The notes under the pieces were generated by a model. It did no database searches. It was not told the DNA's origin and saw only the letters and a program-made list of their open reading frames with translations. Positions 3,403 through 60,570 of a stretch of DNA of 64,000 nt are shown here, in pieces. The stretch lies in IMG/VR virus record IMGVR_UViG_3300025131_000006; one strand, given 5' to 3'. The DNA is from a virus. The stretch's first letter is position 1, and every line of letters starts with the position of its first letter. The translations under genes and the position numbers were made by a program.

Positions 3403-4197
3403 ATGTCAAAGCAGGGGCAGCAGGCATTCCCGGTCGTTCGGGATCGCGAAACATCGGGCAATAGCACAGGTGGTGTTGCACCTCCGGGGTACGGAGCGCA
3501 CGACAAAGAAGATCATTTGTGGATTATTCCCAAGTTCGCGATCCACCCGATCACAAAGAGGTTGGAGGCCACGGCAGGGTTGTTTTATCGAATGTGGCCA
3601 GAGCATGTCTCTGCGTTGTTGGAGATGCGTGACGAGGGATGGCCGCACATTGAGATTGTTCGAGTTGCCAAGGAGTTCTGGGGTCGTCAACAAGAGGCGT
3701 ATCAGAAAGATGAAGCCTTGGTGCAGCAGTACAAAGAGCAGTCTCACTCGCAGCGAATGCAGGAAGGGCAGAATTTGCAGGCGGGTGCAGCAGGTCTGTT
3801 GCCACCGGAAGTGGCACAGCAGATGGAGCAGGGACAGGAAGATCCCGAATTGCAACGCAGCTTATCTTTAATGCCGACGTCGGAGTATCGTCGGGCGTTG
3901 GCAGAGTATAAAGATAAGCATAGCCAGGGTCGTCGGCACGGTCGGCGTCCGCCATTTACACGAAGTCAGCGAGGTTCTGCCATGGAAACGATGACACGAA
4001 GACAGCACCGTTCATGGGGGAGGGGTGGTGGTTTCGCTGTTCTGACCAAAGCAGATGTCACCGGGGAAGAGGTCGATACGCCGAAAAGATTGCGCGATAA
4101 GCGCGAGATGTCTTTTACGCGAAAAGATACAGGCGTGGCGAATGCTGCGTTCTCGGCACCGTCTGACTCAAATGTTGATCATCGAGGTACGTCGTGA
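3403..4197 (+). CDS. hypothetical protein (carries GGFAVLTKA motif variant)
   Basis: 264-aa ORF, GTGA overlap with portal start. Confidence 0.65.
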   Translation: MSKQGQQAFPVVRDRETSGNSTGGVAPPGYGAHDKEDHLWIIPKFAIHPITKRLEATAGLFYRMWPEHVSALLEMRDEGWPHIEIVRVAKEFWGRQQEAYQKDEALVQQYKEQSHSQRMQEGQNLQAGAAGLLPPEVAQQMEQGQEDPELQRSLSLMPTSEYRRALAEYKDKHSQGRRHGRRPPFTRSQRGSAMETMTRRQHRSWGRGGGFAVLTKADVTGEEVDTPKRLRDKREMSFTRKDTGVANAAFSAPSDSNVDHRGTS

Positions 4198-7416: not shown

Positions 7417-10400
7417 ATGTCGTCGAAGTTGCAAAAGTCGTTATTGGCGAATCAGGTAGCCAACATGGTGGGGCGTCGTCGCTCTGTAGGAGTGTTGCAA
7501 GAGCAGACTCCCCAATGGGGTACTCCTTTTGCGGGTTCGGACGAAAATCAACCAAAGGGTCGATTTTTTGGCACAGACGGATGGCGACAAAGTCACAAGA
7601 TAACGGACGAAGAGCTTCGGAAGGCGAGTGATGATTCCGGGTTCGGTGATCCAAGGGAGGCTCCTGGGCAACAAGCTCAGGATAACCGTTCTCCCGAAGA
7701 GAGGTTAGCTGGAGCCAAGGCCAATATTCGCAGTAGAGGGGTCTCTGCTGTTGTGGGGGCAGCCCAGCGAGGAAAAGAATTGGGCCAAAAGATGGCCACC
7801 GCTTTGATGGATACGAGTGGTTCTGGGTTAGCAAGTGTCGCGACAGGAGCTTTACCGGGTGCGGTGAGTTCTTTGGCTGGCACGGCGTCGCGGGCTTCCC
7901 AAAGAAAACAAGCGGACATCTCCGACGCTGCGACGATACGAAGGCTGAAGCCTCGACATTCGTCTCCGCAGGGAGCACAGGCAGATGGCAGCAAGCCTCG
8001 ACATTCGTCTCCGCAGGGAGCACAGGCAGATGGCAGCAAGCCTTCTGGCGGGTTTGGCCTTACGGTGACCAGGGGGGAGATGCCTCGTGAGAGTGGACTC
8101 ACGATTCCGAGTATCCCGGCAGTTCCCGATCCAAATTGGGGTGGCGGGACTTCTCTGGAGGGTATGGGCTCTGGATTTGGAGTCGTATCCAAGTCAAAAA
8201 AAAAAAGCCTAGATTTGCTGGATGAGTGTGGTTTCGGGTTGCTCTGTTCTTACGAGTACGACGTCCCATTCTTGATTAAAAGTCAGCAGGATGACCCGTC
8301 TGCGCCTGTTCCCAAGGTTGCAGGCCATTTTTTGACAGGGGCACCGAATCCGTATTCGGGAGACGAGGAGCACTTTCACCCGCGTCGTGAGCATTTCGAT
8401 AGTATGATCTCCCACGCAGCAGTGGGCAGGAGAGACGAGGCAGAGTCGTTAGCTCGTCGGCACGTGGCGGACCATAGTGCTGATTTCTCTCCAGAACAAC
8501 GTGACCACTCCTCGCAATCCCATCACAGGCACGCACAGAAGCTGCGTTCAGAGATTGGGGATTATCACCCCGGAGAGCACGGTCCTATTGATCCCAACGA
8601 TGATCAGTTTAAGAAGTGGTCATTGATGCATTTTCACGGAACGGCGGCTCGCGAGCATCACGATCAGGCGTATCACGAGAGACGTGCAAAAAGAATCGCA
8701 GGAGACGCTGAACGTCGCGGTGAGGTGTTGGATAACGAGGGTTTGTTACGTCGCTTGGAAGATGAGATCCACTCACTGTCTCACAGTGCGACAGGAAATC
8801 TTCATGGAGCGGTGGGGCTCTTGCGCGATGCGATGGAACACGCTGGCTCCTTAATGACAGGGAGAACGGACAGCGCGGGTGCTGATATGTTGGTGCGGCT
8901 CCGACAGTCGATGGGAGCCTTGGCAGAGCACATGGGCCTCAAGAGAAAGTTGCCGGATGATCTAGACTTGCTGCTGCATTCAGATGACAAGCATTGGGAT
9001 CGTCTTGTCAAAGAGATTAAGTCGAGCACGCCGAACACGTTGGGCTTACCACACAGGCGAGGACTTAATGCGATCAACTTGTTGACCGAGGGTCAGTTTG
9101 CAGCCGTTCGAGACCCCCGGAACTATTCGTCGGAGCACGCAGCCAAGCCGCTGCGTGGATTGCATTTAGCGGGGGGCTCTCGGTACAAGCCTGATGCGTC
9201 CAGAGGGGCATACGAGGATGCTCATCGTGTTTGTGTGGGGTTGGCCCGCCGGGACTATCAGGGACATATTTCGCGCGGCCTGCGTCTCCCGCAGGATGTT
9301 ATAGGGGCGATGGCCGAGGGAGAGACGGTTCCCTTGAATGCTGTATCCTCGTGGACGGACGATCATCACATCGCTTGGGGGTTTGCGGATCGTCCTGCTC
9401 GCAGAGACGGAAGTGGACGGATGACTTCAGAGGAGGCCGACGCGATCGGCCCGCGTGTTGTCTTGCGTATCCCGGAGGCACGGTGGGGAACACCCATTTC
9501 TGACTTGAGCACTTGGAAGAACACAGAGCGGGAGATATTGTCGGGTGGAGAGGCGACGATTCGATCGGTAGAGAAGAAAGACCACGCGACGGGAGAATAT
9601 TACGAGATTGTGTTGGACCACTCCAAGAGACCGCAAGTTCTGGAGGAGTTCCGAGACAGTCCTTTCTCGACTCGTGCTCGCGTTCAACACTTGAGGTTGG
9701 ATGAGTTACCCGAAGACGGTCGCCGTTTGCGAGTTGCCGGTGACAAGCCTGGTGGTGCTCATAAAGGGGCTGTTGTGGAGCATCCAGATATGCCCAACCG
9801 CTCTTTCTTGTTGAAGCCTGTTCGGAGTGCTCCAAAGGCATTGGGAGAGGTTGCAGGATCGCAGATTGCGGCTCGCATATTGGGAGAGCATGCTGTCCCG
9901 GCCAAGCTGATCTCCACGCAAGAGTCCCATAAGAAGATTCGTCGATTGGGTTACAAAGGGGCACCGCCCGTATCCGTGATCCAAGAGATGGTAAAGAACG
10001 GTGGAGCACTGCCAAAAGATAAAAAGGGCATTGTTTCGTTGCCGAGTGGTATTCATACGGACCTTCTTGCTTCCATGGTGGCGAATTGGGTGATCGGTGA
10101 CCATGATGCCCACGGTGCTCAGTATTTAATGTCTCCGGGTGGGGATAGCGCGGTTCGGGTGGACTTCGGGCAGAGCTATAAGCACTTGCATTCTGATAGG
10201 CTGGACACACACTACCATCCAAATGCAGCGTACGGAGAGTCGAAGCCAGCACCCATGTTGCTGTTGGAGGCATTCCGAGATGGAGAGGTGGATTTAGACT
10301 TTGGGCACCCCAAGATTGAGGCAGCCATTTCGCGGGCCGAGCGTATTTCGGATGTGGAGTTGAGCGAAATGATCAAGGATTACGCAGAGGCGGTCTCTCA

Positions 10401-11657: not shown

Positions 11658-12698
11658 ATGTTTGGGTTTGCTGGCGTTGGTCGTCGTTCAAGAGAGTATT
11701 CTTGCTCTCCGTTTTATGCACGTGCTTTGCGCTTGGATGCAGAAACGGCCTCTTTGGTAGCGGATTCTCCTGATTATTTGTCTCCGTTCCCAGAGAGGTT
11801 GTCTCCCAAGGAAAGGAAAGAGCGAGAGGAACATGTCAGGAATCAGTCGAAGCTGGAAAGAAAGTGGAAGGAGTTGGAGGCTGAGTACTTGCGTTGGCAG
11901 GCTGACGAGGTAGCGGAGAACGACCCCATGCAAAAAGGTTTTGGTGTCCTGTATAAAGCAGGTGAAGAGGGAGAAGGCGGAAGAGCGTCTGTTGCAGATC
12001 TGCGTCCACCTTCTGTTGCGGCCAACCCCAAGCCCTCTCATCCTCAGTATACGGACTATAGTTCGGCGAGAGTGACGGAGACAGGCCACGATCATCCGGA
12101 TATTCAACGCCTCGATAAGAATCGCCCCCCTGTGTACACCATATTTCCTCACCAGGAAGGGTACGATCGGAATGAGGCGTCAAGGTCTTATGCGACACGG
12201 CGAGAGTATGACACGAGAAGACAGCAGGAGAATATTCGCCAAGCACACAGCAGGTGGGAGCAGCAGCGGGTGAGACCACCGTCGCGTGGTCCGAATTACT
12301 CGGAAAGAATGGTACACAAAGAAAAGATGGATGCTTGGCACCAGCGAGAGGGGGCACGTTACCAACAATCTATGGACGATGCTCTTTCACAAATGGATGA
12401 GAGAATGAGTGGCGGGGGGGCTGAAGATTATCGCGATCAGCGATCTTGGTGGGGTCGCCTGAAAGATGGAATCCGAGGAGTGAACGATTCATTCAAGGGT
12501 GTGGATTCGGGTTTCGGTGTGGTGGCCAAGGGAAAGGATAAGCCAACAGACTCTTATCGCAATGCGCAGGGCACCCGTCGCCGAGGTGAAGCCGATGTGC
12601 CATATCCGGGATCGGAGTACAAGGCGGTTGACGAAGAGGAGTCCAGTTTGAAGAAAACGTGTGGTTTCGGGGTTTCAAAGAACGGAGATGACTCATGA
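11658..12698 (+). CDS. putative internal head protein with three GFG-V motifs
   Basis: KGFGVLYKA, SGFGVVAKG, CGFGVSKN; AGGAG SD. Confidence 0.6.
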   Translation: MFGFAGVGRRSREYSCSPFYARALRLDAETASLVADSPDYLSPFPERLSPKERKEREEHVRNQSKLERKWKELEAEYLRWQADEVAENDPMQKGFGVLYKAGEEGEGGRASVADLRPPSVAANPKPSHPQYTDYSSARVTETGHDHPDIQRLDKNRPPVYTIFPHQEGYDRNEASRSYATRREYDTRRQQENIRQAHSRWEQQRVRPPSRGPNYSERMVHKEKMDAWHQREGARYQQSMDDALSQMDERMSGGGAEDYRDQRSWWGRLKDGIRGVNDSFKGVDSGFGVVAKGKDKPTDSYRNAQGTRRRGEADVPYPGSEYKAVDEEESSLKKTCGFGVSKNGDDS

Positions 12699-17953: not shown

Positions 17954-18315
17954 GGTGCGTTGTGTTTCAAGATATAAAGTGCCAAAGTCGCCAATGTCGT
18001 AATAAAATTTTGCGCTTAAGTGGAGATGGTCATCTCCGTTTCAGTATAAAGGCTTTGATCGCAAAAGGGGAGAACGCGCAGTTGACAGCGGTTTGTAGGG
18101 ATTGCGGGGAGGAAAATGTTCTTCCGTATGCGTTATCTCCTGTTGCCCCCGTGAGTTCAGACGACAAAGAGACGGTCCAGAAGTCGAAGCCGAGGCGTGT
18201 CGCGTGCGAGGTGACCAAGGGGGGGTCGTCTGATCAAGGAGGGTTCTTGGTCATTCGAAAGTCGGTCACGAAGCCTGTTCCTTTTGTGCCTCCTGAAGAG
18301 AAAGGGGTTGACTAA
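17950..18315 (+). CDS. zinc-ribbon protein
   Basis: CQSRQC...CRDC; GGFLVIRKS motif variant; precedes prohead protease. Confidence 0.6.
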   Translation: MRCVVFQDIKCQSRQCRNKILRLSGDGHLRFSIKALIAKGENAQLTAVCRDCGEENVLPYALSPVAPVSSDDKETVQKSKPRRVACEVTKGGSSDQGGFLVIRKSVTKPVPFVPPEEKGVD

Positions 18316-40606: not shown

Positions 40607-43600
40607 GTGGGAAAGAAGATGTCCGAGCCTGTTGAAACAGTTGAGTCTCCTGATTTGAGTCCTTCTCCGGAAGCCCTTGATCAGCATGCATTTATGGAGC
40701 AGTACCACAAAGAGGATGGTCCGGGGGAGGGAGGGGAACATCAGGTGCGCGATCTGATGCGGGATAACTCTTGGGTGCGAGCAGCACATCTTCCGGTGAA
40801 TCACAGCGAAGCAGGATGGAAGGCGGGTCGAAGAATGCCAGAGGGCATTGATCCGGAGCACGGGGAGATGTGGGATGGTTTTCGGACAGCCAACAAACTC
40901 TCCGCTTTCCATGGAGAGGAGCCGATCCATCCAGATGATTACAGGGAGATGTTTGAATCCGACAGGGAAGCACGGGATCAGCATCGTGAATCTGTTTCGG
41001 TCTCCGACGTTCTGGGGGGATTTGGCTTGGAGTTGGGGAGGAAGAGTAAGCTTGACTCCGAGCCCGTTCAAATGGTTTCGGAGGAGCTTGGTCGCCTCCA
41101 AGGGGCGGGGATGTCCTTGTCGTCTCCGGGTTATCGTGGGGCTATAAAGTTAGAGATGCAGTCACCAGACGACGATCCTGAGTATTGGGCGTATGGCCTG
41201 TTGAGAGGTGAGTACTTACCAAAGAAACACGCAATCCGCGTTGACCGCAGCGGTGAGTCTTTCGCACATGAGTGGTTTCACGCGGTAGATGGCGACTTGG
41301 GTTTGCCGAAAAGTTGGTGGCGCCGGGCAGCGCAAAAAGTAAAGACGGCTTTTGATTTTACCAAATTTGCGGCATCTAATGGTCAAGGAGATAGGCCAGA
41401 GTCGAGACACTTAGAGAGCTTTGTGAAGTTCCTTTCGACGATACCAACTGTGCAAGAGAGATGGGATCGGTCTTATTCGACGGAGTCAAGACCTGGGATG
41501 TTGGATTGGTTGCAAGGGGATATGCCGGAAGATCCTGGAAAGGACTTGGCCGAGTATATGTTGTCTCCGCACGAGGTGTGGGCACGATTCGGGGCACAGT
41601 TGGTCTCATACAGGTCGGCTGTTGCAGTTGCTCAAGGTAGATTGGCTCACCCGACCTTGTTGGCAAACCCATACAGTGAGTTGTTGAAAGATCCAGGTCA
41701 TTGGACACATGAGGAGTTCTCTCGCATCGTGAAAGTATGGGAGAGATCTCCTCTCTCGAAGATGTTGGAGTCGGGGATAAGAAAGGCTCTTGGGTTTGGG
41801 GTGTTCTTGAAGTCTGAGGGCGAGCAACTGTCGCTGCCGTTCTCTATACGGGCACACACTCCAGGTGGCAGTGCTCCGCCTGCTGTCTCGCCACCAACAC
41901 CTGTTGCGGATTCACCAGGAAGTTCAGTCACTGAACATTCAGGGACGGGCGGTGCAGCAGTTTCCAACAGCACGACCACCGATTCCTCTCCTGAAGTACC
42001 AACGGAAATAGTCCCGCCAGAACTGACCGGGGAGTGGGAACAGGCGGGAGGTGGCGTGCGGCATCGCGTAAAGGGCTATGTTCCCGTTATGTCGCATCCA
42101 AAATACGAAGAGATCGATCTTCATCCAGGGGCTTCTGCGAACGCGAGAGCCCATGCTTATCGGAATCGACGGGTATTGGAGGAGCCGAAAGTTGTTGATC
42201 ATATGCCAATCCATGAGTATGGACACAGCGGCCTACATCAGGAGCGGGGGTGGGACGATATACCGGGCCGATCCATACATGATCTGGAGGAGATTAACCG
42301 CCGGGGTGTGTCGATGCAGCACAGGTATCCATCGGTGGCATCGGTCGAGTTTGAGCCGGAAGAGATCTATTCGGCGATGGATGGTTTGCAAGCAGAATTC
42401 GAGCATCGATTCCAATCACAGCTTGGGGTGGTTAATAAGCACAAATACAAGGCACAAGTTCCCGACCACGGATTTTCGTTTGCCAATGAAGAGTCTGTGC
42501 GGAGTCCGGCACAGGTGGCAGCGGCGACATCTGCTTCGCTGTGGACAGGCGGGAAGGTCGAATATGTGCGCAATCCGGACCTTTGGGACTCAAACGAACT
42601 CGACAAGGAGAGCGTGGGAGGTCCTGGTGGGTGGGAGGGAGAGAGGACGGAAGAGAATTACAGGATGGCGCATCGGGTGATGACACAGTTGGCACAACGT
42701 CAGGGTGACGAGACAGTGTCAGTTGCTCGTGGGATGGCCATTCCAAGTCATCACGTGCCAGGGTTTTTGGACAAGATGGACTTGGGAGACATCTCAAGCT
42801 GGACCAAGGGAAGTAATTATCAGCCCACTATGACTTTTGTGAGTCATGCCTTGGATCATGGGTTTTGGGACGAAAGTCACCTTGAGTCTTTTGAGCACCA
42901 GCTTCGGGAAGGGCTGGAGCAGTCGGGGAACTTTGAGGAAGGAAGCGACGAGGTAGATCAATTACTCGAAGAATATTTCGAGCACCACGGCGGGCCATTG
43001 GGGAACAATGGTGATGCTGACATTTTTGTTGAATTGGACATGGACAGTGAGGTGCGTCACTTCCGAGAGAGTAATCTTGGGCATTACTCTTCTGGCATGG
43101 CAGCAGTCGTGTTGTTGGCCGATACAAATATTGGAACGACACTGAACCACATCTCAGCTTATCCGGGTGAGTGGGAGCATGTGCTCGGAGGAGAGGCCAC
43201 GGTGCGCGACGTGCGAAGGATTCCCTCTTGGGATTCAGGTGAGTGGGACGAGGAAGATTTTTGGGACCATGATGAAGATGATTATGCCGCTCGCGAAGAT
43301 CACCCAGCGTACGGAGACACAGGAGAGAAATTTACGGAATTCACGGGTGCCAATGACCATCTTGTAGGTGGTCTCGAAATTTACGTTATCAAAGTCGAAG
43401 TGGCGCCCAAGTCCGAAGTAAAGAAGGGTCTCTCTCAAAAGGAGAAGCCCAAGCCGAAGACGTTCCAAGATTGGGTGGATTGGAACTTGAATATAAATCT
43501 TCCTCGAAAAGGCAAGGAGGAGCCGAGCACGAACAAGGACGAGAGAAAAGAGCAGCCTGTTATCACCAAGGGACCGACTTGGTCGGGGCATAAGTTGCAA

Positions 43601-46284: not shown

Positions 46285-47523
46285 GTGATGAGTCCAAAAG
46301 ACGGTGGTTTTGGGGTATTGCGTAAGAGCGAGGAGCACGACAGCTTCCAGTCGAGCAGTTATGCCGTACCAAGGGAGCAGATGACGTGGCGTCCTCCCAC
46401 GCCGAATATTCCGGGCCGCCCTGTTTCGCCTCCAAGTGGGCAGCCCCAGGAACAGGCCCCGATCACTCCGCCCCCGGTGCAGCCCGGCACAGAGACTCCG
46501 ACTCCAGAAGACGCTGCGTCGATGCCGAGCTTTCACGATCGTGATCATGGATGGATGTCGCATCTGTTGCCATCCCAGGAGCATGCGAACAATATGCCGG
46601 GGCATACGAAGATGGACAGCGACCAACTTTACATGCACCACAGCTTCGCAAGGCCATTCACCGATCTGTCCCAGTTTGATGGTGTGGACTCCAGAGTTGA
46701 GCACCGAACTGTACAGATGGGTGACAGGGAGTTCCACCAAGCCAAGGGAGACTTGTCGCACGAGGCGGTCCACATGGGGAGCTTTGAGAGGCGTTTGGAG
46801 CGGGGCCTTGACGGTGGTTTGGAGTTGCACAACGAGCACATGTTGGTGAACCCAGAGTTCCGGGGCAAAGGGTATTCTTCCCAGTTTTATGCACGCCAAG
46901 AAGACTACCTCCGGCAATTGACACAGCACTTGCCGGAGCAAGAGAAAGCAAAGACGCGGGTCACAATGTTGGCGGATGTGGTGATCGGTCGATACCAATG
47001 GATGACGCAGGGGTATCGATTCTCCGATCATGCGACTCGTTCAGACGTCGTGCGCAGTTGGCATTCTCAATTGGAAGACCTGTTGGCGGGTCACGCGGGC
47101 ATCGTGGGTCCGGAGGCGGGCAAGAAGAAAAAAGATGTGACGTGGGGCGACTTGCAGTCGATGGAGCCGAGGTCGTTGGATGACTTGGGGCTCCGCGAGT
47201 CTGCGGAGGAGTTGCGGGATAAACTGTGGGACGCACAATATGACGAGAACATCGAGCCGTGGGACTTGTTGGCGATGGATCCTGGACACCGTTTTTTGAT
47301 GAGGGCTTATTCGCAGACGGACGAGCAGAACGTTGTGCCGGGCTCGCTGATCAAGTTCTTGGCGTTGTGTGGTCCGGATTGGTCTGCGGTCAAGTACGTT
47401 CATGGTCCCACCGAGAAAGACCAAGAGGGCATCGAGTTCGGCGACGAGCGGCGCCATCGAATGGCACAGCACGCCCATCGTTCGGGTCGCCCGTGGGGGT
47501 GGTTGCAGTCGCAAGACAAATAA
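46285..47523 (+). CDS. GNAT-like acetyltransferase with N-terminal GFG motif
   Basis: VNPEFRGKGYS (acetyl-CoA motif A)..IGRYQWMTQGY; N-terminal GGFGVLRKS. Confidence 0.7.
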   Translation: MMSPKDGGFGVLRKSEEHDSFQSSSYAVPREQMTWRPPTPNIPGRPVSPPSGQPQEQAPITPPPVQPGTETPTPEDAASMPSFHDRDHGWMSHLLPSQEHANNMPGHTKMDSDQLYMHHSFARPFTDLSQFDGVDSRVEHRTVQMGDREFHQAKGDLSHEAVHMGSFERRLERGLDGGLELHNEHMLVNPEFRGKGYSSQFYARQEDYLRQLTQHLPEQEKAKTRVTMLADVVIGRYQWMTQGYRFSDHATRSDVVRSWHSQLEDLLAGHAGIVGPEAGKKKKDVTWGDLQSMEPRSLDDLGLRESAEELRDKLWDAQYDENIEPWDLLAMDPGHRFLMRAYSQTDEQNVVPGSLIKFLALCGPDWSAVKYVHGPTEKDQEGIEFGDERRHRMAQHAHRSGRPWGWLQSQDK

Positions 47524-47832: not shown

Positions 47833-49473
47833 GTGATTCCAATGCCCATAGAAAATCCATCGTCACAATCTTTGCCAAAAGCAGGAGTCGTGCCTGCACC
47901 GGGTTCCGGGTTTGGAGTTGTTCCGAAAGGGGATGGTACGTCGCGACCTCCAACGTCGCCAAAGATTGAAGTGGGGGAAGACCTCAGTGTTTCCGATCCA
48001 TCGGGGTTTGGAGTGCAGTCTCGAAGCCAGGATGTTCGAGGATACGCCCATCCGTCTGTGCCTGTGCCAGGAGCACAGAGCTTGGAGGAGACGAAGCAGC
48101 CGAATATTCCTGTAACAAATGAAAACTTGCCAGGAGAGCGTATCTTCCCCAGTGGTTATCCTGCTCCGGCGGATGGGTTGCCACCTGTAACGCCGGAGCA
48201 GCTAGAGGCGGACTACCATCAGTTTATGGATAACAGAAGAGCAGACTTGGAGCAGGCCATACTCCAGGCCAACAGTTCTATTGATCCGCACTCGGATCAC
48301 TATTCTCGTGTTTTGGAATACGAGCTTTTGGACCATGATCTGAATACGCACGTGGCGGGATATGCTCATCGTGAGAGACAGGGAGAGAGCCCAACTCAAA
48401 CGATGGATCAGGTGATGGAGGAGAAAGAGAACGTCAGGAAAATGCACAAGTTGGAGGCGGAGATTCGAGAGAATGCACCGGATCTCCAGCTTCATGTAAG
48501 ACAGCACAGCATACCACGGGGCCAAAGCCAATCTGTGTTGAGGGGTTTGGCCGACAAGACCACGGGTCACGGCACTCCGTGGATGCGAGGGTCGTTTTAC
48601 AGCTTGTCTCCGCAAGATCAGGATATGTTGGAGGCGATTGCTCTGTTTACAGACGGGGCCTTTACGAAAGGGCTGCGTGACCCTCATCTTATGGCAGCCG
48701 ATAATCAACGGGACTCGTTCAGGGGCGTTGTGTCAGGTGCTCGCTTTGCCGACGGATCGAGAGTTCAGTTTCACCCGACAAGCAGGGGCTATGTGAAGGC
48801 TCACCAAATACTCCGAGAGCTAGGGGCCTCTCCGTACGAAGCAGAGGACGGTGCTTTGTTTCGCGGAATGACCTTACCGGTAGAGACGATAGAGCATCTC
48901 TTGGACGGCGACGAATTCGATCTCCAGGGCGTGAGTTCTTGGACGGATAGCCGAGCCGATGCTTTGGATTTTACAGCAGGGACTCGACATCCCGGTGTGT
49001 TGTTTGTGTTGGAGGAGCCGAAGTGGGGAACAAATATATCGAGATTGAGCAATTTTCCTCGCGAACGAGAGACAGTCGTGGGTGGTCGTGTCCAGGTGGT
49101 GTCGTCTGAGATGTCTGTCCATAACGATGTTCACGTGATTCGCGTCACACACATAGGGCAGCCGGAGAGCATTATGAAGTCAAAAGATCGTGAGCCAGGA
49201 CACTTGGACGTTATCGAGCGTGAGTTCCAGCAGATAATGCCTCACCAGCGTAGGAATCGCATGGATAGAGAGATGGCACGACGTGCTCAAGCAGAAGAAC
49301 AAGAGGAGTCGGGCTTCGGTGTTGTGACTCGTGATTCTGAACAGGAAGACGAGGAGAAGTCTCTTGCGGGGGTTTCTCGGCATATGGTGCAGAGGTTGGC
49401 GAAGGAGTCTGTGCGAAGACGCGGGCTTCAGCCAAAGCCCGATGGAGTTTCGGCAAAGCCACCGGTCACGTGA
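47833..49473 (+). CDS. ADP-ribosyltransferase-domain protein
   Basis: LFRGM..VSSWT..PRERETVV; paralogous to the ART of 7417; three SGFGV motifs. Confidence 0.78.
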   Translation: MIPMPIENPSSQSLPKAGVVPAPGSGFGVVPKGDGTSRPPTSPKIEVGEDLSVSDPSGFGVQSRSQDVRGYAHPSVPVPGAQSLEETKQPNIPVTNENLPGERIFPSGYPAPADGLPPVTPEQLEADYHQFMDNRRADLEQAILQANSSIDPHSDHYSRVLEYELLDHDLNTHVAGYAHRERQGESPTQTMDQVMEEKENVRKMHKLEAEIRENAPDLQLHVRQHSIPRGQSQSVLRGLADKTTGHGTPWMRGSFYSLSPQDQDMLEAIALFTDGAFTKGLRDPHLMAADNQRDSFRGVVSGARFADGSRVQFHPTSRGYVKAHQILRELGASPYEAEDGALFRGMTLPVETIEHLLDGDEFDLQGVSSWTDSRADALDFTAGTRHPGVLFVLEEPKWGTNISRLSNFPRERETVVGGRVQVVSSEMSVHNDVHVIRVTHIGQPESIMKSKDREPGHLDVIEREFQQIMPHQRRNRMDREMARRAQAEEQEESGFGVVTRDSEQEDEEKSLAGVSRHMVQRLAKESVRRRGLQPKPDGVSAKPPVT

Positions 49474-51371: not shown

Positions 51372-52586
51372 ATGGAACAGATGGACGATCTTAAGATTGG
51401 AGGAGAAGGTCCGGCTTCTGCGGAGGCTCAGGGAGTGCAGGGAGAGGCATCCAGTAAGCTGCCGTTTCCTCACCCTGTGGCGAATTCGAACGATCTCTCC
51501 GGGGCAAGTCGAGACGATCTGGTGAGCCATTATGAGCAGAGGAGCACAGAGCTAAAAGACCAAGAGATGTTCCAAGCGAGAGAGGCTATGGAACGGGGGG
51601 GTTCCCCAGAGGTGGAGCTTGTTCCTTCACACATGCATAGGTATGAGAAAAAGAAGTTATTTGGAGGGTCGCCACCGCGAGAGCATTCAAAGGAGGCTTG
51701 GAAGAGGGTTATTGGCACCGGGAAGAGCCCTGCTTGGGATTGGTATGCTGACTCCCAAATGCGTGCTGCGGAGGAAGGCCAGCCCCCGACACATATGGAT
51801 GATTGGATTGAGCAGTGGATGGAGAAGCACAGAACCTCCGTCACAGAAGAGCACAAGGAGGATGTTCGCAGCGGTGCATTCGCCGAGCGCCGTGGGGTTG
51901 ATTTGAATGGGGTTGGTGGGGATGTCAGTGTTCATGTGGCTGAAGCGCTTGAGGATAACCTGTTAGCACCTCTTCCCAGGAACAGAGGGGCGTTAGGGGT
52001 CGTCCATCACAGAACGGGCAATGAGTTCGTGCGTTATGGGGATCTTTACATGGGGGCGTATCATGTAAAGCAGCACACTATTGAGATTGGGACTTCGGGA
52101 GAGTCCTTCGCTCACGAGTTTTTCCACGCTCTAGACAGTGATACGGGTTATAATTGGTGGGGTAGGGTCAAGATGGAGTTCGGGACTCCTGTGTATGCTT
52201 CGGAGGGGTCGGGGCGAACTCCTGAGGCTCGCGAGCTTGCAAAGTTTACCCACCTTTTGGGGCACTCTTTGAGCAAGACAAGAGGGAGGCACTTAAAAGA
52301 TTTGTCTCCTGCGGCGAAGAGGTATTTTTACGAGCCGAAAGAGTTGTTGGCTCGATTTGGAGAGCAAATGGTCTCCCATCTTTCGCACCTGCACGCTGCC
52401 CATGGGGTTCACTCAACAGCAACAAAGTTGGCGAAGGACATTGACCATTACTACCACAGCCCTGTTCATTGGGACAAAAGAACGCTCCAGGCTCTCCTCC
52501 ATGTATGGGGTGGTCTGTCTGTCGGAAAGAGGATGCTTGGCGACGTGGAGAAAGCTTTTGGGTTCGGTGTAATGGTGAAGCTGTAA
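51372..52586 (+). CDS. HExxH/LPD1-like protein
   Basis: GESFAHEFFHALD..YFYEPKELLARF; paralog of the first domain of 40607; ends KAFGFGVMVKL. Confidence 0.72.
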   Translation: MEQMDDLKIGGEGPASAEAQGVQGEASSKLPFPHPVANSNDLSGASRDDLVSHYEQRSTELKDQEMFQAREAMERGGSPEVELVPSHMHRYEKKKLFGGSPPREHSKEAWKRVIGTGKSPAWDWYADSQMRAAEEGQPPTHMDDWIEQWMEKHRTSVTEEHKEDVRSGAFAERRGVDLNGVGGDVSVHVAEALEDNLLAPLPRNRGALGVVHHRTGNEFVRYGDLYMGAYHVKQHTIEIGTSGESFAHEFFHALDSDTGYNWWGRVKMEFGTPVYASEGSGRTPEARELAKFTHLLGHSLSKTRGRHLKDLSPAAKRYFYEPKELLARFGEQMVSHLSHLHAAHGVHSTATKLAKDIDHYYHSPVHWDKRTLQALLHVWGGLSVGKRMLGDVEKAFGFGVMVKL

Positions 52587-54621: not shown

Positions 54622-57600
54622 ATGGAATTGGTTTGCATCGAATGCTTATCAGGTGGCTTCGGCTTGTTTGTGAAAGGTGCGGGGCACAAGTACATCAAGC
54701 GCGAGTTGGTTTCGACTTCTCCAAGAAAGTATCGGTATTGGTACAAGCTCCCCAGAGGAGCCTTGGTGCATGATGACGCCGTTCACGTGGGCGCCAAGTT
54801 CCGTCATGGTTCCGGTGACGATCGCGGGCACTATCACGTAGACGAGGTCCATGATGATGGCTCGGTCAGCGTTACCCACGATGAGACCGGACATACGACC
54901 AAAGTGTCTGCACACAAGCTCAAAGACATGATCCACACGGGTGATCATGATCTAGGTGAATCTCCCCAAGAGAAAGGGGAGCGGGTGCTCCAAAGCTACC
55001 AACAGGCTCTCCAGACGGGCACAGACAAGCAGATCTCGCTGCGCTTACATGATCTGATGGAGCACGTGGCGGCTTATCCGCAAGAGTCGGTGTCGTTGGG
55101 TTATGCGTTGGCTCAAGCAGATCCAGGCGTCAAAGAGGCCATGTTGTCATTGGCTCATGGTGGGGTGTCCACGTTCAAGACGCACAAGTCCACAAAGAAG
55201 CGTGGAAAGAAGGGCGAGAAAACAAAACACGGTGGAGCACACGTCGAGGTGACGTTGGAGCACCGTTCGTATGGAAAGATCGTCGAGGATTCGGCCAAGC
55301 AGTTGGAGCAGTTGGATGAGTCGGCGATTGTTCAGGAGATCCAAGAGAAGACGGGCGCCACAGAAGACGAAGCCAAGCAGGCGTTCTTGGCTGTAAAGAA
55401 CAGCTTGGCAAAGAAGCAGAACTCTTCGAATGAGGGGGCATCGTATCTGGAGCCCTTCACGATAGACGGCGAGTCTGTTCCGGGCGTTTTTGTTTACAGT
55501 GGGAGTAATGAGAGCAAGAAGGGAACTCTTTATGTTCGCGGACTGATCGAGAACGAAGACGTGTTGGACCCTGGGTTTGGACCGGCTCCGAAGTCTGCGA
55601 AGCCGGGTAAGGTTCTCGCTCGTGCTCAGGCTGTCATGCGGTCCAAGTTGGACATAGGCCGGGTGCGTCAATACACGTTGACGCCGAGTGCTTTGTACGA
55701 GTGGTCACACGCTCCGGCAACCGGGGCAGACTTCAAAGAGGTTGATGGAGGGGCTGCTGATCAGGATAGCCTAGCTAGCCAGGCAGATTCCGGGTCTAAA
55801 AGTTCAGTCACCAAACAGTCTCACAAGGAAAGTTCGGACCTGGCTAATAGCCAGGTCGCCGAAGAGTCACCAGATGAGTTGGACGAGAGCTTGCCTTCCG
55901 GCAGCGAGGGTCTTCAATACGAGGGTGCCAAAAAAGGAGGTCAGTACCCCGGAGCAATCGTGAGTCACCCAGACTTCCCCGACAAGCAGTTTATGGTTAA
56001 GCCAGGACGGGATTTTTTGGTGCACGCAGAAGTTGCCGGTACGAATCTGGCGGCACGAGTGCTCGGCGACGATGTAGCCAAGGCACGTCATATCGATGTA
56101 GGTGGAGCCCCGCAATCGATCGGAAAGGGCCAGCAACACGCATCGATTCAAGAGATGCGCGAGAACGACGGAGATTTGGTCTCCAATCGATATGACAGTC
56201 ACATGATCCGGAATCTCCCGCAAGAGTTGAAACAAGATGTGCTGCGTCATCAGGTGGCGACGTGGTTGGTGGGTGATTCGGACGCTCACGCCGGGCAGTT
56301 CTTGCGTGGGACCGACGGGAGTTTGATTCGGATTGACTTGGGTCAAGCGTACAAGCACATCGGCAACGATCGGCTCGATCCGAGCTGGCAGCCGAACAAT
56401 CCCCCGCCGGTAGTATCCCATCTGTTGGTGGGCGATTACGCAAAGGGCCAGGGAGAGTTGGACTTCACGGACCCCCGGATCAAAGAGGCAGTGGAGAGAG
56501 CCGAGTCCATCACAGACGATGAGGTGGCACAAGCAGTCCAGCCGTATGCCGACGGTTTGGAGAAATCGGGTATTCGCTCTGCGAAAGAGACGATCGCGAA
56601 GGCAGTGGCTCGAAAGAACGGCATCCGGTCTGACTTCGAGCAGTACTTCTCCAAGGCACTCTCGCAGCGACACGGCAAGCCGATGACGTTTTCGTTTGAG
56701 GACGGCATCTCGGAGGGCGGCGTCTCTAAGGGTTTTGGGGTGTGGAGCAAGAGTGGCACTCCGGTGGAAGATGCAGACGACTCGACTGAAGCACCGACGA
56801 GGTTTCACGGTGCCAAGTTGTTTTATATAGAGCCTTTGATGGAAGAGCCCAAGGGTTTCGGGGCTCTCACGAAGGGCAGTAAGCATAAGTATGTGAAGCG
56901 AGAAGTTCGTATTGGACCTGATGGCAAGAAGCGTTATCGGTATTGGTATAAGCTCCCCAAGGGACATATCGTGACCGACGACTCTCTTCATATAGGTGCC
57001 AAGTTCCGCCACGGTAAGGACGAGGAGCGGGGGCACTTTCATATCGAGAGCATAAATCCGGATGGGACAATGAACGTTCGGCATGATGAGACCGGAGAGT
57101 TCAAGAAGGTCACGCTCGACAACTTGCGCGGGATGATCCACACGGGAAGCCACGACATCGGAGAGAACCCTGCGAGCAAGCTCCAGCGGTTGTTGGAGTC
57201 TTTGCACTTAGCGTTGCAGCACGGGACGAAAAAGCAGTACAATAAGCTGTACGAGCATGTGATGGAGCACGTGGAGGCGTTTCCTCATATCGCGTTCGAG
57301 GGGAACGAGCCTGTCACATCGGACCATGTGCAAGATAAAATGGCGGATGTGTATTCGGCGGGCAAGCTGTCAGAGCACTTGGACGACCACGAGCACTTGT
57401 CGGATGAGGTGAAGTACCAGGGCTTCTTTGCGGAAGCCAAAGCATTGGCCGAAAAGTATCATGATGCCTTGGTGGAAAAAGCTAGAGAGGCGGGTGCTAA
57501 GGGGTCTTCGTACACATATTGGATTATCAATGAGGCAATCTTTAAAAAGTTAAACAAGGAGCAGTCTGCTCTCTTCGAAAAGTACAAAGATGCACCAAAA

Positions 57601-60570
57601 AGTGTAAAGACATCGGTAGTTGCGTCCCACTTGGGGTCTTCTGTAAAGGGTGTTTCCCCGCTGATCTCCGAGCTTCAAGCAGCCCATGCGGAAGGGAGTC
57701 AGTCGTTTAATGCCAGCGTTGACGAGGTTCACAAGAAGGTTGTTCATATTCGAGGGATGGTGGAGTCGGGTCAGCTTTACGCCGATATTTGGAAAGAGCT
57801 TGAGGATCTGCGAGAGCATGTGCTCAGCTTGTCGGGTGAGGTCCAACACGAGTTGGAAGATTCGTACGACTTCCTGTGGACGACAGAGGGCTTGAAAGGA
57901 AAGCTGAAGCAGTGGAAGGGGCAAACCTCGTACGGGACGCATGAATATGTCGATCTCGTGCATATGGGCTTCAATGGTGTCCTGAAAGACATGTCGAAGG
58001 CGAAGGCTCTTCAGTACATCAAAGACAACGTGACGTGCGAGTATCACTCGGAGGAAGAGGCTCTCAAGATCGTGGGAGACTCGTACGATGCGACGGCAGC
58101 GACGTTTTTGAATGTCCAAGCCAAGCTCGATTATTTGAAAGACTTGATCGAGTCGGAGTCAGACAACGCGGATATTTGGGCAGCGGCTGAAGTGCTGTTT
58201 ATGGAGCTTTCTTCGACAGGGTTGTTTAAGCACCCGGCGTTCGAGGAGATGAAGACGTGGAAGAAAATCTCGAAGTTTGTGAAAGAGGGCATCGAGGAAG
58301 CAGCGAAGTCGCCTACGGACAGTCCGCAAATTCCTGGGTACAAGTATGATGCTCTTTACCCCATGGGCTTGGGTGTCAACACTACAGTCTTCGGCACGGT
58401 AAAGAAGGAGAACCCCTACGTTAAGCTTGTGAGCGGTAGCGATACCACAAGCCACGAGGTGTGGGCAGAGGGGATTGATACAAAAGGGAACCCTGCGTAC
58501 ATCCATGTGGGAACAATGGTTCCTGACGAAACATACCCCGATTTGATGCATTGCTTTACTCCTGCGGGGAATGAGATCAAGTCAAAGGGCAAGATACCCA
58601 AGGGCCTCAAGTGGGGAGGGAACTTGCTTGTTTGGTTCAAGGTGAACGTTACCGAGCCAAAAGAAGAGTTCACCGATGGCGCCGAGGAGGAGTATCAAGC
58701 GTTCTGGGGAGCGACGCCCTTGGGTATAATGACGGGCAAAGGTACACCGAGCGACGCACCGGAGCCAGGGTCTGAGTCTGAGTCGGGCGAGAGTTCAGTG
58801 ACTGAACCGTCGGATGCTGCTCCGGATAGTTCTGATTCTGATGCAGAGCCAAAACCAGGTAGCCCGGACACAGCATCCGAGACGAGTGCTCCAGCACCGA
58901 CGCCCAAGAAGAAAAGCATCTTGCAGGGCAAGAAGGCGGTGAAGCATGGGACATTGGTGACAGGTGGCCAAGTTGCCAAGAAAAAGAACAAAGAGACAGG
59001 CGGGTGGCACATTGTTGCGGAAGCCCAACATGGGAACAAGACCGTCGCAAAGGTGATTGGCTCGATCCACAAGAAGGGGAGCAAGTGGTACGCGGATAAT
59101 TCGCCGGAGATAGGAGGCTTCAAGACAGCGGGTGCGTTGATTGAGGTGATGCAGAACAAGGCGTTGGATGTCCAAAACAACCCGCCTGCTCCTCCGGTGT
59201 CAGAGCAGACACCCCAAGACAAGGTGTCTCAGCTTATATCAGAGTTGAAGACCGTCCTCGATGCTGGCGATATGTCGGATGATGTGATCTCCACATTCTT
59301 TTACAAGATCGAGCAATTGGCGGCCAATAATTACGGTTTGATGCATGATGGCCAGCCTGTGACCAATAAGCCGTTCTTGTATCAGTTGGTGATGGATGCG
59401 GGAACTGCGGGCAACTTAGACAATGCCGAAGGATGGAAGGTCTGGTCTGAGCACAAGAATAAAGACATCAACGCAGCCGTGTCAAAGCCCAAGGCTCCTG
59501 CCGATGTCTGGATGGCTATTCAGAAGGAGACCAACGCAGCCGCGTACAAGAAGCAACAGGCCGAAGTGGCGGATAAGTACAAGGCCCATGGCCACCTCAT
59601 CGAATCCCCACCGGCTATGGGTGGGTTTGGAGCACTCCAGCAAGACAACACATATGCAGATGGGTCAGTTGGGGCTATTCGTGCGATCCACGATCATGTT
59701 CGAGAGAAGTACAACCTCGGCAGCATCTCAGCGAAGCATCACAACAAGCGAAAAGATGTCATCGCAGCGTTGTTCCCGGCGGAAAACTCCACGGTGAGTA
59801 GCTGCGCGGCGACTTGGACGACGACATCAAACCCCATCGGGTACGGTGGGAGCTTGAACAATAACGTAATGTTTCGGTTCTTCTCGATCGCTATGGGCTT
59901 GCGGAACTTAGAGGAGGAGATCAGCAAGCTCAAGGATATTTATGGGATGAAACCGCAGCACGAGCAGCGGTTTCGCCAGGAGTACGCAGAATTTGTCGAT
60001 CCCTCTCACAGCAGGTTCCGCCAGTTCGAGTGTTTGTTGTTACGTCATGTGGTCTGGCGAGATGCCGTGATGGCAAATGGCGGAGAGGGAGTAGATACGG
60101 CAACGGGCACGCTTCACCTCTTCCGAGGCATGGGCAAACTCTCGAAGGATTATGTTGATGGTCTGAGAGAAGGAAACTTGGGTCAGACTTCGGCTGCAAG
60201 TTGGTCTACCGTAAAGAGCGTTGCCAACAGCTTCAGCGGCGGGGGCTTTGGAAGCTCTAGCTATTCGGTAGTGTTTGAGGCCGATAGTGTTCCGATTGAG
60301 CACTGTCTCTTGGGTAAACACACAGAAGGAATTGGGTTCGGCAGCGAGAAAGAGGTGATTGTTGGAACAGCCCACAAGTCGAAGACCGTTCATGTTTACG
60401 TGAAGCCACCAGGGATGGATAAAGAAACAGTGATGCAGGAGAGGAACCTCCCCGGTGGTACTGTTGTAACGCACAAGTCTCTTGCTCGCGGCGGATTTAT
60501 CTTGGGCGTGGTGAAGAATTCGGGCTTCCGGACTATTTCGAAGAGCCGGTATGGATCGGCGTACGATTAG
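54622..60570 (+). CDS. large polyvalent protein: 2x HKY module + HipA/PI3K-like kinase + C-terminal ADP-ribosyltransferase
   Basis: Duplicated HKY.KRE..YRYWYKLP..GAKFRHG module; MVKP..AEVAG..GDSDAH..IDLG; LFRGM..AASWS..SEKEVIV. Confidence 0.78.
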   Translation: MELVCIECLSGGFGLFVKGAGHKYIKRELVSTSPRKYRYWYKLPRGALVHDDAVHVGAKFRHGSGDDRGHYHVDEVHDDGSVSVTHDETGHTTKVSAHKLKDMIHTGDHDLGESPQEKGERVLQSYQQALQTGTDKQISLRLHDLMEHVAAYPQESVSLGYALAQADPGVKEAMLSLAHGGVSTFKTHKSTKKRGKKGEKTKHGGAHVEVTLEHRSYGKIVEDSAKQLEQLDESAIVQEIQEKTGATEDEAKQAFLAVKNSLAKKQNSSNEGASYLEPFTIDGESVPGVFVYSGSNESKKGTLYVRGLIENEDVLDPGFGPAPKSAKPGKVLARAQAVMRSKLDIGRVRQYTLTPSALYEWSHAPATGADFKEVDGGAADQDSLASQADSGSKSSVTKQSHKESSDLANSQVAEESPDELDESLPSGSEGLQYEGAKKGGQYPGAIVSHPDFPDKQFMVKPGRDFLVHAEVAGTNLAARVLGDDVAKARHIDVGGAPQSIGKGQQHASIQEMRENDGDLVSNRYDSHMIRNLPQELKQDVLRHQVATWLVGDSDAHAGQFLRGTDGSLIRIDLGQAYKHIGNDRLDPSWQPNNPPPVVSHLLVGDYAKGQGELDFTDPRIKEAVERAESITDDEVAQAVQPYADGLEKSGIRSAKETIAKAVARKNGIRSDFEQYFSKALSQRHGKPMTFSFEDGISEGGVSKGFGVWSKSGTPVEDADDSTEAPTRFHGAKLFYIEPLMEEPKGFGALTKGSKHKYVKREVRIGPDGKKRYRYWYKLPKGHIVTDDSLHIGAKFRHGKDEERGHFHIESINPDGTMNVRHDETGEFKKVTLDNLRGMIHTGSHDIGENPASKLQRLLESLHLALQHGTKKQYNKLYEHVMEHVEAFPHIAFEGNEPVTSDHVQDKMADVYSAGKLSEHLDDHEHLSDEVKYQGFFAEAKALAEKYHDALVEKAREAGAKGSSYTYWIINEAIFKKLNKEQSALFEKYKDAPKSVKTSVVASHLGSSVKGVSPLISELQAAHAEGSQSFNASVDEVHKKVVHIRGMVESGQLYADIWKELEDLREHVLSLSGEVQHELEDSYDFLWTTEGLKGKLKQWKGQTSYGTHEYVDLVHMGFNGVLKDMSKAKALQYIKDNVTCEYHSEEEALKIVGDSYDATAATFLNVQAKLDYLKDLIESESDNADIWAAAEVLFMELSSTGLFKHPAFEEMKTWKKISKFVKEGIEEAAKSPTDSPQIPGYKYDALYPMGLGVNTTVFGTVKKENPYVKLVSGSDTTSHEVWAEGIDTKGNPAYIHVGTMVPDETYPDLMHCFTPAGNEIKSKGKIPKGLKWGGNLLVWFKVNVTEPKEEFTDGAEEEYQAFWGATPLGIMTGKGTPSDAPEPGSESESGESSVTEPSDAAPDSSDSDAEPKPGSPDTASETSAPAPTPKKKSILQGKKAVKHGTLVTGGQVAKKKNKETGGWHIVAEAQHGNKTVAKVIGSIHKKGSKWYADNSPEIGGFKTAGALIEVMQNKALDVQNNPPAPPVSEQTPQDKVSQLISELKTVLDAGDMSDDVISTFFYKIEQLAANNYGLMHDGQPVTNKPFLYQLVMDAGTAGNLDNAEGWKVWSEHKNKDINAAVSKPKAPADVWMAIQKETNAAAYKKQQAEVADKYKAHGHLIESPPAMGGFGALQQDNTYADGSVGAIRAIHDHVREKYNLGSISAKHHNKRKDVIAALFPAENSTVSSCAATWTTTSNPIGYGGSLNNNVMFRFFSIAMGLRNLEEEISKLKDIYGMKPQHEQRFRQEYAEFVDPSHSRFRQFECLLLRHVVWRDAVMANGGEGVDTATGTLHLFRGMGKLSKDYVDGLREGNLGQTSAASWSTVKSVANSFSGGGFGSSSYSVVFEADSVPIEHCLLGKHTEGIGFGSEKEVIVGTAHKSKTVHVYVKPPGMDKETVMQERNLPGGTVVTHKSLARGGFILGVVKNSGFRTISKSRYGSAYD
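55802..55816. repeat. 15-bp palindrome site 18
   Basis: GTTCAGTCACCAAAC, in CDS linker (SSVTKQ). Confidence 0.75.
58793..58807. repeat. 15-bp palindrome site 19
   Basis: GTTCAGTGACTGAAC, in CDS linker (SSVTEP). Confidence 0.9.

Follow-up and report, generated by a model that had tools for sequence, protein, structure and literature searches.

The question raised by this locus is why one short peptide should recur in protein after protein of the head module of an uncultured SPO1-like phage. The locus lies in a stretch of 64,000 nucleotides of the IMG/VR virus record IMGVR_UViG_3300025131_000006 (the window, bases 39,695-103,694 of a 104,653-bp virus contig), and the peptide, called the tag below, has the consensus [S/G/K]-G-F-G-V-h-x-K↓[S/G/A], in which h is a hydrophobic residue and the arrow marks the bond at which cutting is considered. 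A first-pass annotation of the window had seen in it a code by which cargo proteins are targeted to the capsid and then cut by the phage protease. In the present analysis about an even chance is given to the reading that the tag marks the cutting, by the prohead protease, of cargo travelling in the capsid, with a possible addressing role in addition. This is considered the best reading because the end of the tag matches conserved, candidate cleavage sites of the core head proteins and because the protease could be identified.

Enrichment and distribution of the tag

All 11 tag sites and six variants listed at the outset were found, to within one base, in the frame of long open reading frames (ORFs) of the plus strand. 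Enrichment was tested with 300 within-protein shuffles of the ORF set of the whole 104.6-kb contig. The pattern GFG[VLA]..K[SGA] was observed ten times, against a shuffle mean of 0.003 and a maximum of 1, while GFG[VLA]..[KR] and GF.[VLAT]..K[SGA] occurred 13 and 14 times (0.16 and 0.25 expected, respectively). An unbiased scan of the predicted proteome for gapped 4-mers ranked GFG...K first, with 12 occurrences versus 0.33 expected. Among the 16 full-length sites, Gly at P7 and Phe at P6 are invariant (16/16 each), Gly at P5 and Val at P4 are each present in 13, and P3 is hydrophobic in 15; P1 is Lys in 14 and Arg in two, and P1' is Ser in seven, Gly in five and Ala in two. Two shortened copies, GFGVSK↓N and GFVVK↓S, raise the total from 16 to 18 sites. 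Codons vary freely between the sites, so that conservation at the peptide level, as claimed earlier, holds, and a DNA-level repeat as the origin of the tag was ruled out. The tag had also been described as often bracketed by a second K↓G/A site; a Lys immediately before GFG was seen at three full sites out of 16, and the short variant at 26638 has one too; the other full sites lack it.

The full-length sites are distributed over 11 genes; the plus-strand genes between positions 3403 and 60570 of the window comprise 13,127 residues. No match was found in 13,188 residues of upstream genes and 3,154 residues of the 27-38.8 kb tRNA/small-gene island (16,342 in total). The expectation that proteome-wide motif discovery would return a motif confined to virion proteins was thus borne out as far as gene position goes, the tag being the top motif and restricted to genes of the head module. 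This position suggests that the tagged proteins are virion or head proteins.

Tag placement and architecture of the cargo proteins

Four tags are located in N-terminal leaders (one in the protein of 412 amino acids (aa), two in the 546-aa and one in the ~2000-aa protein). Seven tags or variants lie at most 50 residues from a C-terminus, a single Leu following the Lys in the 404-aa protein, and the others are internal; up to four are found per protein. Pairwise comparison revealed that the cargo proteins are mosaics of paralogous modules, with tags on the module borders. Residues 63-402 of the 1811-aa protein match residues 102-403 of the 404-aa protein, and a tag closes both. Residues 79-412 of the 412-aa protein match residues 474-785 of the 886-aa protein, the common module stopping four residues before GFVVK↓S. 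Two further modules of the 1220-aa protein, residues 761-1032 and 550-747, match residues 437-702 of the ~2000-aa protein and residues 266-452 of the 546-aa protein, respectively. In the ~2000-aa protein a module named HKY here (Table 1) is duplicated, and a tag stands directly before each copy. The same cargo modules are present in other combinations in L081 and L083 (63% and 55% capsid identity), the two nearest relatives compared.

The sequences flanking the tags have a polar fraction of 0.61, compared to 0.545 in the tagged proteins overall, a value that 4 out of 2000 random sets attained. The first HKY module was modelled with AlphaFold from 40 homologues; the module itself is confident, and the 19-residue leader that bears the tag has a predicted local distance difference test score (pLDDT) below 50 and no secondary structure. 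A role of the tag as a beta-strand of the HKY fold was ruled out on the basis of this leader. Because of the polar flanks and the leader modelled as disordered, the tag is best described as a linear motif in flexible segments and not as a component of a fold.

With regard to function, the 1811-aa protein combines an InPase domain (PF18823, E 1.7e-38), a kinase-like segment and an HExxH module, and the PHROG matches of the cargo include DarB-like antirestriction. Several unrelated effector-type domains per polypeptide, encoded among virion genes, characterize these products as polyvalent proteins. Word-based searches for homologues of the 412-aa protein and of the first HKY piece returned the phage's own proteins only. 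Gene position and the analogy with polyvalent proteins suggest that the tagged proteins are packaged and injected.

A cut at the tag would divide the 1220-aa protein into residues 1-260 and 261-1220, the latter comprising three modules including NUDIX, and the 1811-aa protein into residues 1-403 (HExxH) and 404-1811 (InPase and kinase-like). The ~2000-aa protein would yield roughly residues 37-728, a 41-residue piece and residues 770-1992. The tags had been said to sit at both termini or between enzyme domains; they do occupy termini, as well as borders of shuffled modules, but few lie between enzyme domains, so that most enzymes would stay fused. The proposal that the polyproteins are cut into separate enzymes was therefore overstated, since the NUDIX, InPase and kinase parts would remain in fragments of 960 to 1,400 residues.

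The prohead protease and candidate cleavage sites of the core head proteins

The protease that had been placed at 18482 corresponds to gene 18410-19405, which encodes a bona fide prohead protease with a fold of the herpesvirus/T4 gp21 type. The protein matched phrog_1028, 'head maturation protease' (E 1.4e-31); no Pfam family was found above threshold and no sequence match in PDB. His102 (NDDHKPG) and Ser169 (GFSIQGK) are invariant in 34 sequences and are probably the catalytic residues. The AlphaFold core (residues 60-210) has a pLDDT above 90, and the top Foldseek matches were herpesvirus proteases (1at3_A, E 3.4e-3, probability 1.00) and T4 gp21 (5jbl_B), at weak E-values and TM-scores of ~0.4 on the target.

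Candidate cleavage sites of one kind are found in all three core proteins. In the protease, h-x-K↓[AS] occurs at K36↓A (LLSK↓AVPD), at K251↓S, which is kept in at least 90% of the 34 sequences, and at K298↓A, where K298 is invariant. In the scaffold protein the site is ILSK21↓AQIV, with DLNK↓AQIT, EFMK↓AQIT and DLLSK↓SQIV in relatives, and h-x-K↓[AS]-Q-I is present in all four relatives compared. The capsid propeptide contains the element G16-F-G...L28-N-K30↓A31 (20901-20948), as had been pointed out for DGFGL upstream of LNK↓A. In an alignment with 24 relatives, L28 and K30 are invariant and A31 nearly so. K30↓A31 (QLNK↓ALEAGY) aligns with K23↓S24 (EDALK↓SFTTGY) of Listeria phage A511, for which NC_009811 annotates the mature peptide from residue 24, in agreement with the Lys↓Ser maturation of Twort-like capsid proteins cited in the first-pass annotation. 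The core head proteins of the clade thus follow one rule, hydrophobic-x-Lys followed by Ala or Ser.

The protease gene contains one more feature. After K251↓S, at about residues 251-297 (window 19160-19300), a segment with the form K↓ALS..GGSxLVPESLEG in relatives is similar to the beginning of the mature capsid protein (K↓ALxAGY...TGGSALRVESLEE). This segment may be a capsid mimic that brings the protease into the prohead.

Positions P4 to P1' of the tag (V-h-x-K↓S/G/A) obey the h-x-K↓[AS] rule of the core proteins. They also fit the rule of a hydrophobic P3 shared by proteases of this fold, as seen in I/L-x-E of T4 gp21 and, with Val at P4 and Ser at P1', in SPN3US gp245. The match with the core-protein sites is the strongest argument for a predicted cut after the Lys of the tag. 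The protease core (residues 30-235, with alignment) was modelled in complex with the tagged leader of the 412-aa protein (residues 1-40); this prediction, run without controls, scored 0.00 and speaks neither for nor against binding.

The Gly-Phe-Gly of the tag has a counterpart in the capsid propeptide, where G16-F17-G18 is invariant in the 24 aligned relatives and kept in nearly all related loci inspected; the propeptide of Bacillus phage JL also contains GFG (GQGFGTATQADVDALNK↓A). Since GFG is invariant in these propeptides, some conserved partner presumably reads it.

Tag versions in relatives and the HKY leader

A search for the strict tag in 160 related loci and in two whole relatives (161 and 147 kb) found none, and GFGVxxK as a clade-wide code was rejected for this reason. 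For the looser pattern F-x-[VIT]-h-x-K-[SGA] the counts are 11 in the 19,709 residues of the window and 10 in 490,358 residues of other loci. In L081 and L083, other versions of the tag stand at places equivalent to those of this phage. L083 has FRTRVTK-D-stop closing the InPase protein, MFRTRVQGK opening the next large protein, GPFRVRSQK↓T (core FRVRSQK) in a small protein upstream of the protease, and MFTILLK↓G and FSTLIK↓GKAHRY. L081 has GAKVVSK↓G, GARVVTK↓K and GGSVVK↓S, and its full-length protein P0151 also carries GAVVMQK↓S, GSVILLK↓G and GACVLVR-stop. A Cys-rich, zinc-ribbon-like protein (CxxC...CxxC) is always encoded directly upstream of the protease (17950-18315 here; L081:7286-7561; L083:7419-7700; G001 102383-102691), and in three lineages its C-terminal tail bears the tag version of its own phage. 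The exact GFG tag is lineage-specific and the system wider.

No Pfam or PHROG family was found for the HKY module. A profile of the module nevertheless matched 626 representative proteins; giant polyvalent proteins of phages, holding two to four copies, are numerous among them, and homologues carry LPD1 and SNF2 helicase modules. The model shows a small beta-barrel and a helical bundle with weak Tudor/PWWP-like matches. Among the matches listed, h-x-K-[GA] precedes the module in almost all of 150 representatives; the leader reads IPxWLGxxL...h-x-K-[GA] in most matches and GF[ASRG]T[LMV][IV]K↓G in the sub-group nearest this phage. Judged by these leaders, the GFG tag is one local dialect of a wider tag family, of which the HKY leader may be the oldest home. 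This family, the lineage-specific character of the GFG form and the two tagged HExxH modules treated below had not been part of the first-pass annotation.

The tag could, in principle, be a remnant of the HKY leader or of a linker that has no function of its own and was spread by duplication and shuffling of modules among the cargo paralogues. The leader just described is standard in related phages and the cargo genes are visibly assembled from shuffled paralogous modules, but the HKY module follows two of the 16-18 sites only, and the other sites flank unrelated sequences and use different codons. The tag is moreover kept where neighbouring paralogues are down to 30% identical, and drift or chance cannot yield 16/16 Gly-Phe and 16/16 Lys/Arg. 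This origin is regarded as highly improbable.

A putative second peptidase type among the tagged proteins

Two of the tagged proteins contain zincin-like HExxH modules with AHEWFH or AHEFFH and, about 80-100 residues further on, E-x-x-A-R. The paralogues are 30% identical, and no Pfam or PHROG profile matched them. It is conceivable that the tags are cut by these modules, in the N-terminal part of the 1811-aa protein and in the 404-aa protein, and not by the prohead protease, the terminal tag then being a product of cleavage in cis or an autoinhibitory tail. Both modules share their two motifs with other peptidase modules of polyvalent proteins (AHEWGHAFD...ELFAR), for which a role in polyvalent-protein processing was proposed by Iyer et al. 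(PMC5512222). The tag ends both of them and is kept at seven of ten positions, against 30% identity of the modules, and the 161-kb relative G001 has neither the peptidase signature nor the tag. However, the activity of modules not recognised by Pfam is deduced from two short motifs, and the end of the tag, Lys followed by a small residue, matches the conserved core-protein sites of the serine protease. In addition, the 21-kb loci of L081 and L083 are tagged and lack a peptidase signature in the parts read, and the N4 virion RNA polymerase and ArdC have such a module and stay unprocessed (PMC5512222). Cutting by the zincin-like modules is accordingly judged quite unlikely. It bears on the open proposal for the processing of polyvalent proteins.

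Cutting, docking and the address of the cargo

For the preferred reading, cutting by the prohead protease, the following course can be proposed, in which we infer the cut, its position after the Lys, packaging, ejection and docking. The tag would be a short linear motif recognised by the head-assembly machinery. The tagged proteins would be head-internal cargo, namely polyvalent proteins with NUDIX, pyrophosphatase, kinase-like and peptidase-like modules together with small partners. The same protease that would trim the capsid protein after Lys30, the scaffold after Lys21 and itself would clip the cargo at its tags inside the prohead, removing leaders and short C-terminal tails and splitting a few large proteins at module joints. 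Gly-Phe-Gly would extend the recognition to P7-P5 and, before the cut, may also be an address that draws the protein into the prohead. Such a capsid-targeting role is plausible. The tag is shared by unrelated proteins encoded in the head module; docking of GFG in the prohead, as proposed at the outset, is conjecture.

Several points weigh against this reading. The phage is known here from sequence alone. No GFG adjoins the sites of the capsid protein, the scaffold and the protease; the GFG of the capsid protein precedes the Lys by 12 residues instead of four, so that the full tag exceeds the minimal requirement of the protease. At several tags cutting would remove just one to eight residues (one in the 404-aa protein), and tags of relatives end at a stop codon (GACVLVR-stop in P0151, GPFTTFVR-stop in P0134). 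Because the tags persist where little is cut off, and at stop codons, this suggests that the uncut peptide has a function of its own, either docking or, equally, tighter recognition by the protease. K-[GA] before HKY is nearly universal in the 150 representatives, which come from very different phages, and at the two HKY sites it may be a part of the module and not a lineage-specific cleavage site. Finally, a putative second peptidase type (HExxH) is encoded and is itself tagged.

These points lead to the possibility that the tag is mainly a docking peptide, uncut or cut incidentally, which would load the cargo by binding to a pocket of the scaffold, of the portal or of the HK97-fold shell on its inner side, much as encapsulin targeting peptides or the capsid-targeting signals of P1 DarB and T4 do. 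The seven tags or variants near C-termini, one with a single residue after it, and the tags of relatives that end at a stop codon agree with this. With its Gly, its two or three hydrophobic residues set apart from one another and the Lys at its end, the tag looks like the encapsulin peptides GGDLGIRK and GSLNIGSLK (PMC10960027), but this likeness is one of style and not of homology. For DarB, the first 30 residues are enough to bring about loading into the P1 head (PMC9024508); a receptor for the tag is hypothetical. GF-G-[TSV] is invariant in the capsid propeptides of the clade and of Bacillus phage JL; the tags of relatives, however, differ, those of L081 lacking the Phe, while their capsid propeptides keep GFG, so that the tag is not a simple copy of the capsid element. 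A strictly kept Lys or Arg with a small residue after it would be expected of a cleavage site. Docking as the main function is on balance thought rather unlikely.

Both functions could be combined in a two-step address. The core GF-x-[V/T]-hydrophobic would dock the cargo in a conserved pocket of the shell or scaffold, at the same partner that reads the capsid GFG, and the prohead protease would afterwards cut behind the Lys, releasing the cargo for ejection. Each lineage would have drifted to its own dialect: the form is GFGVhxK in this phage, G[AS]xVhxK in L081 and either FRTRVxK or FxThhK in L083. With the widespread h-x-K↓G leader of HKY, these versions would form a general loading code in a large uncultured SPO1-like clade, in which the tag would be the phage counterpart of the cargo-loading peptides of encapsulins. 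As a joint claim this is speculative and, taken as a whole, unlikely to hold.

If cutting of tagged cargo by the prohead protease is correct, the cargo that enters the host with the DNA could be read from sequence and the ends of the mature proteins could be predicted. The rule for SPO1-like prohead proteases would be widened from one capsid site to a whole set of substrates, and an unusually long, specific tag with seven fixed positions could be tried as a means to bring foreign proteins into capsids. The lineage-specific versions represent a natural experiment on the joint change of a protease or receptor and many substrates.

Organization of the head module

The gene order is portal, cargo genes, protease, scaffold and capsid, and this synteny is kept in L081, L083 and G001 (Table 1). 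The head module is split here by an 11-kb island of small genes; its two halves are contiguous in L083 and are therefore considered one module. The portal ORF has Intein_splicing, LAGLIDADG_3 and Hom_end matches at residues ~255-632, and the portal domain proper starts at ~634. The major capsid protein shares ~40% identity with its counterparts in SPO1-like Bacillus phages and 25-28% with capsid proteins of the Twort/K/A511 type. Hundreds of uncultured relatives were found by capsid protein at 45-65% identity, the closest being P0002-P0013 at 60-65%, and an identical capsid protein is also encoded on a 160,757-bp contig; four public contigs carry this same protein. A search of viral contigs with the single capsid protein gave no match, and the alignment-based query alone succeeded.

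Two ORFs of the island end in a near-identical peptide, SCLCAAVPRHQLSH at 34848 and SCLCAAVPRYQLSH at 36750, which suggests a duplicated element. The sole long minus-strand gene within the cargo cluster (53088-54287) has a full-length match to phrog_2319 of unknown function (E 6.7e-59) and looks like an inserted, possibly mobile, gene.

Table 1. Tag sites, modules and genes of the head module, in window coordinates
Feature	Position	Strand	Remarks
264-aa protein		+	First gene of the head module, just upstream of the portal gene
GFAVLTK↓A (variant)	4030..4053	+	Residues 210-217 of 264-aa protein; 47 residues after it
Portal gene	4194-7337	+	Interrupted by intein with LAGLIDADG homing endonuclease
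1220-aa polyvalent protein	7417-11079	+	NUDIX at its end (E 2.3e-13)
GFGVVSK↓S	8173..8196	+	Residues 253-260 of 1220-aa protein
346-aa protein	11658-12698	+	
GFGVLYK↓A	11937..11960	+	Residues 94-101 of 346-aa protein; K before it (MQK↓G)
GFGVVAK↓G	12510..12533	+	Residues 285-292 of 346-aa protein
GFGVSK↓N (shortened)	12663-12683	+	346-aa protein, five residues from C-terminus
Several unknowns, then 1010-aa conserved protein		+	Between 1220-aa protein and Cys-rich protein
121-aa Cys-rich protein	17950-18315	+	Directly upstream of protease gene
GFLVIRK↓S (variant)	18241..18264	+	Near C-terminus of Cys-rich protein
Prohead protease	18410-19405	+	Followed by scaffold and capsid genes
Probable scaffold protein	19451-20749	+	Between protease and capsid genes by synteny in relatives
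Major capsid protein	20856-22337	+	SPO1/Herelleviridae type
Decoration-like protein		+	Downstream of capsid gene
886-aa protein	24274-26934	+	Follows decoration-like protein
KGFVVK↓S (short variant)	26638-26655	+	886-aa protein, right after module common with 412-aa protein
GFGVVKK↓G	26893..26916	+	886-aa protein, six residues from C-terminus
Small-gene island, 11 kb	27000-38800		Labelled tRNA-like and small genes; short ORFs on both strands
Conserved structural protein	39713-40606	+	Downstream of island
1811-aa polyvalent protein	40607-46042	+	Large cargo gene beyond island, interleaved with structural genes
HExxH...ExxAR module, zincin-like peptidase type	40793..41815	+	Residues 63-403 of 1811-aa protein
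GFGVFLK↓S	41792-41815	+	End of HExxH module
412-aa protein	46285-47523	+	Cargo gene beyond island
GFGVLRK↓S	46306..46329	+	Residues 8-15 of 412-aa protein, N-terminal leader
546-aa protein	47833-49473	+	Cargo gene beyond island
GFGVVPK↓G	47908..47931	+	Residues 26-33 of 546-aa protein
GFGVQSR↓S (Arg variant)	48004-48027	+	Residues 58-65 of 546-aa protein
GFGVVTR↓D (Arg variant)	49312-49335	+	546-aa protein, 45 residues from end
Conserved structural protein	49843-51366	+	C-terminus weakly resembles neck or adaptor protein
404-aa stand-alone HExxH paralogue	51372..52586	+	Cargo gene beyond island
FGFGVMVK-L-stop	52560-52583	+	End of 404-aa protein
~2000-aa polyvalent protein	54571-60570	+	Cargo gene beyond island
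GFGLFVK↓G	54655..54678	+	Leader, residues 29-36 of ~2000-aa protein (12-19 by the start of public gene call P0122), directly before HKY module 1
HKY module 1	54679-55077	+	~130 aa, K-G-x-G-H-K-Y-[IV]-[KR]-R ... GHYHV ... HDETG
GFGVWSK↓S	56731..56754	+	Residues 721-728 of ~2000-aa protein, after module common with 1220-aa protein; K before it
GFGALTK↓G	56854..56877	+	Residues 762-769 of ~2000-aa protein, directly before HKY module 2; K before it
HKY module 2	56878-57291	+	As module 1
GFRTISK↓S (variant)	60523..60546	+	~2000-aa protein, eight residues from C-terminus; resembles FRT-type tags of L083

Comparison with known systems

A literature search found no paper on a cargo tag or an extended protease motif in SPO1-like phages, which at its incomplete coverage is weak evidence of novelty. 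The closest parallel is the capsid targeting sequence (CTS) of T4, which, according to the summaries of Mullaney and Black 1996 in PMC9024508 and PMC12991175, is carried by the internal proteins IPI-III and Alt and removed by gp21 at I/L-x-E. As summarized there, it is likewise a short peptide common to unrelated head-internal proteins that includes the site of a protease with the herpesvirus-type fold, and some of the cargo proteins are host-modifying enzymes. The CTS of these accounts is strictly N-terminal, about ten residues long and ends in Glu, whereas the tag ends in Lys, has a fixed Gly-Phe-Gly and is found at N-termini, C-termini and internal joints, with up to four copies per protein. 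For the prohead protease gp245 of Salmonella phage SPN3US, 14 sites have been mapped in nine substrates; Val is preferred at P4 and Ser at P1' (PMC10052503, PMC5694885). There and for gp175 of phiKZ a single protease motif recurs across many head and ejection proteins, as it would here, and propeptides are cut at several places. The motif of these phages, however, has Glu and not Lys at P1 and comprises three positions compared to seven or eight fixed ones in the tag, and the SPN3US cuts, with one exception, take off N-terminal propeptides, unlike the spread of the tag. Targeting has been demonstrated for the T4 CTS and the SPN3US system has been proven by mass spectrometry, while the tag of this phage is read from its sequence.

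The Lys↓Ser site of Cps of A511 (Herelleviridae) is located in a homologous capsid protein and aligns with QLNK30↓A31, L-x-K↓A being invariant in the present clade, but sites of the A511 type are known for the capsid protein only. Encapsulin cargo-loading peptides (GSLxIGSLK, GGDLGIRK) are also short and Gly-rich with spaced hydrophobic residues and a terminal Lys, are often C-terminal, and occur on unrelated cargo in containers with the HK97 fold, where pockets of the shell take up their hydrophobic residues and the Lys forms a salt bridge (PMC10960027). They differ in showing no sequence homology, in staying uncut and in having a known pocket, shell binding of the tag being a conjecture.

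With respect to the cargo, polyvalent proteins with InPase and NUDIX domains were predicted to be packaged in virions (Iyer et al. 2017, PMC5512222), and the InPase, NUDIX, kinase-like and HExxH modules, as well as the location of the genes among virion genes, are the same here. That work differs in having no common punctuating peptide and in naming a metallopeptidase, not the prohead protease, as the processing enzyme; the HKY module is not described as far as Pfam shows. The 250-kDa polyvalent protein DarB of P1 is loaded via an N-terminal signal of less than 30 residues (PMC9024508). The Dar system thus also packages a giant multi-enzyme antidefence protein into the head by a short terminal signal, and accessory proteins are co-loaded. 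Unlike the tag, this signal is not a motif repeated across proteins and has no link to a protease site, the capsid site of P1 being E120↓S121. The system described here is therefore distinguished from those of T4, phiKZ/SPN3US and P1 by its predicted cleavage chemistry (Lys), by the length and rigidity of the tag, by its presence at both termini and at module joints, and by its lineage-specific dialects.

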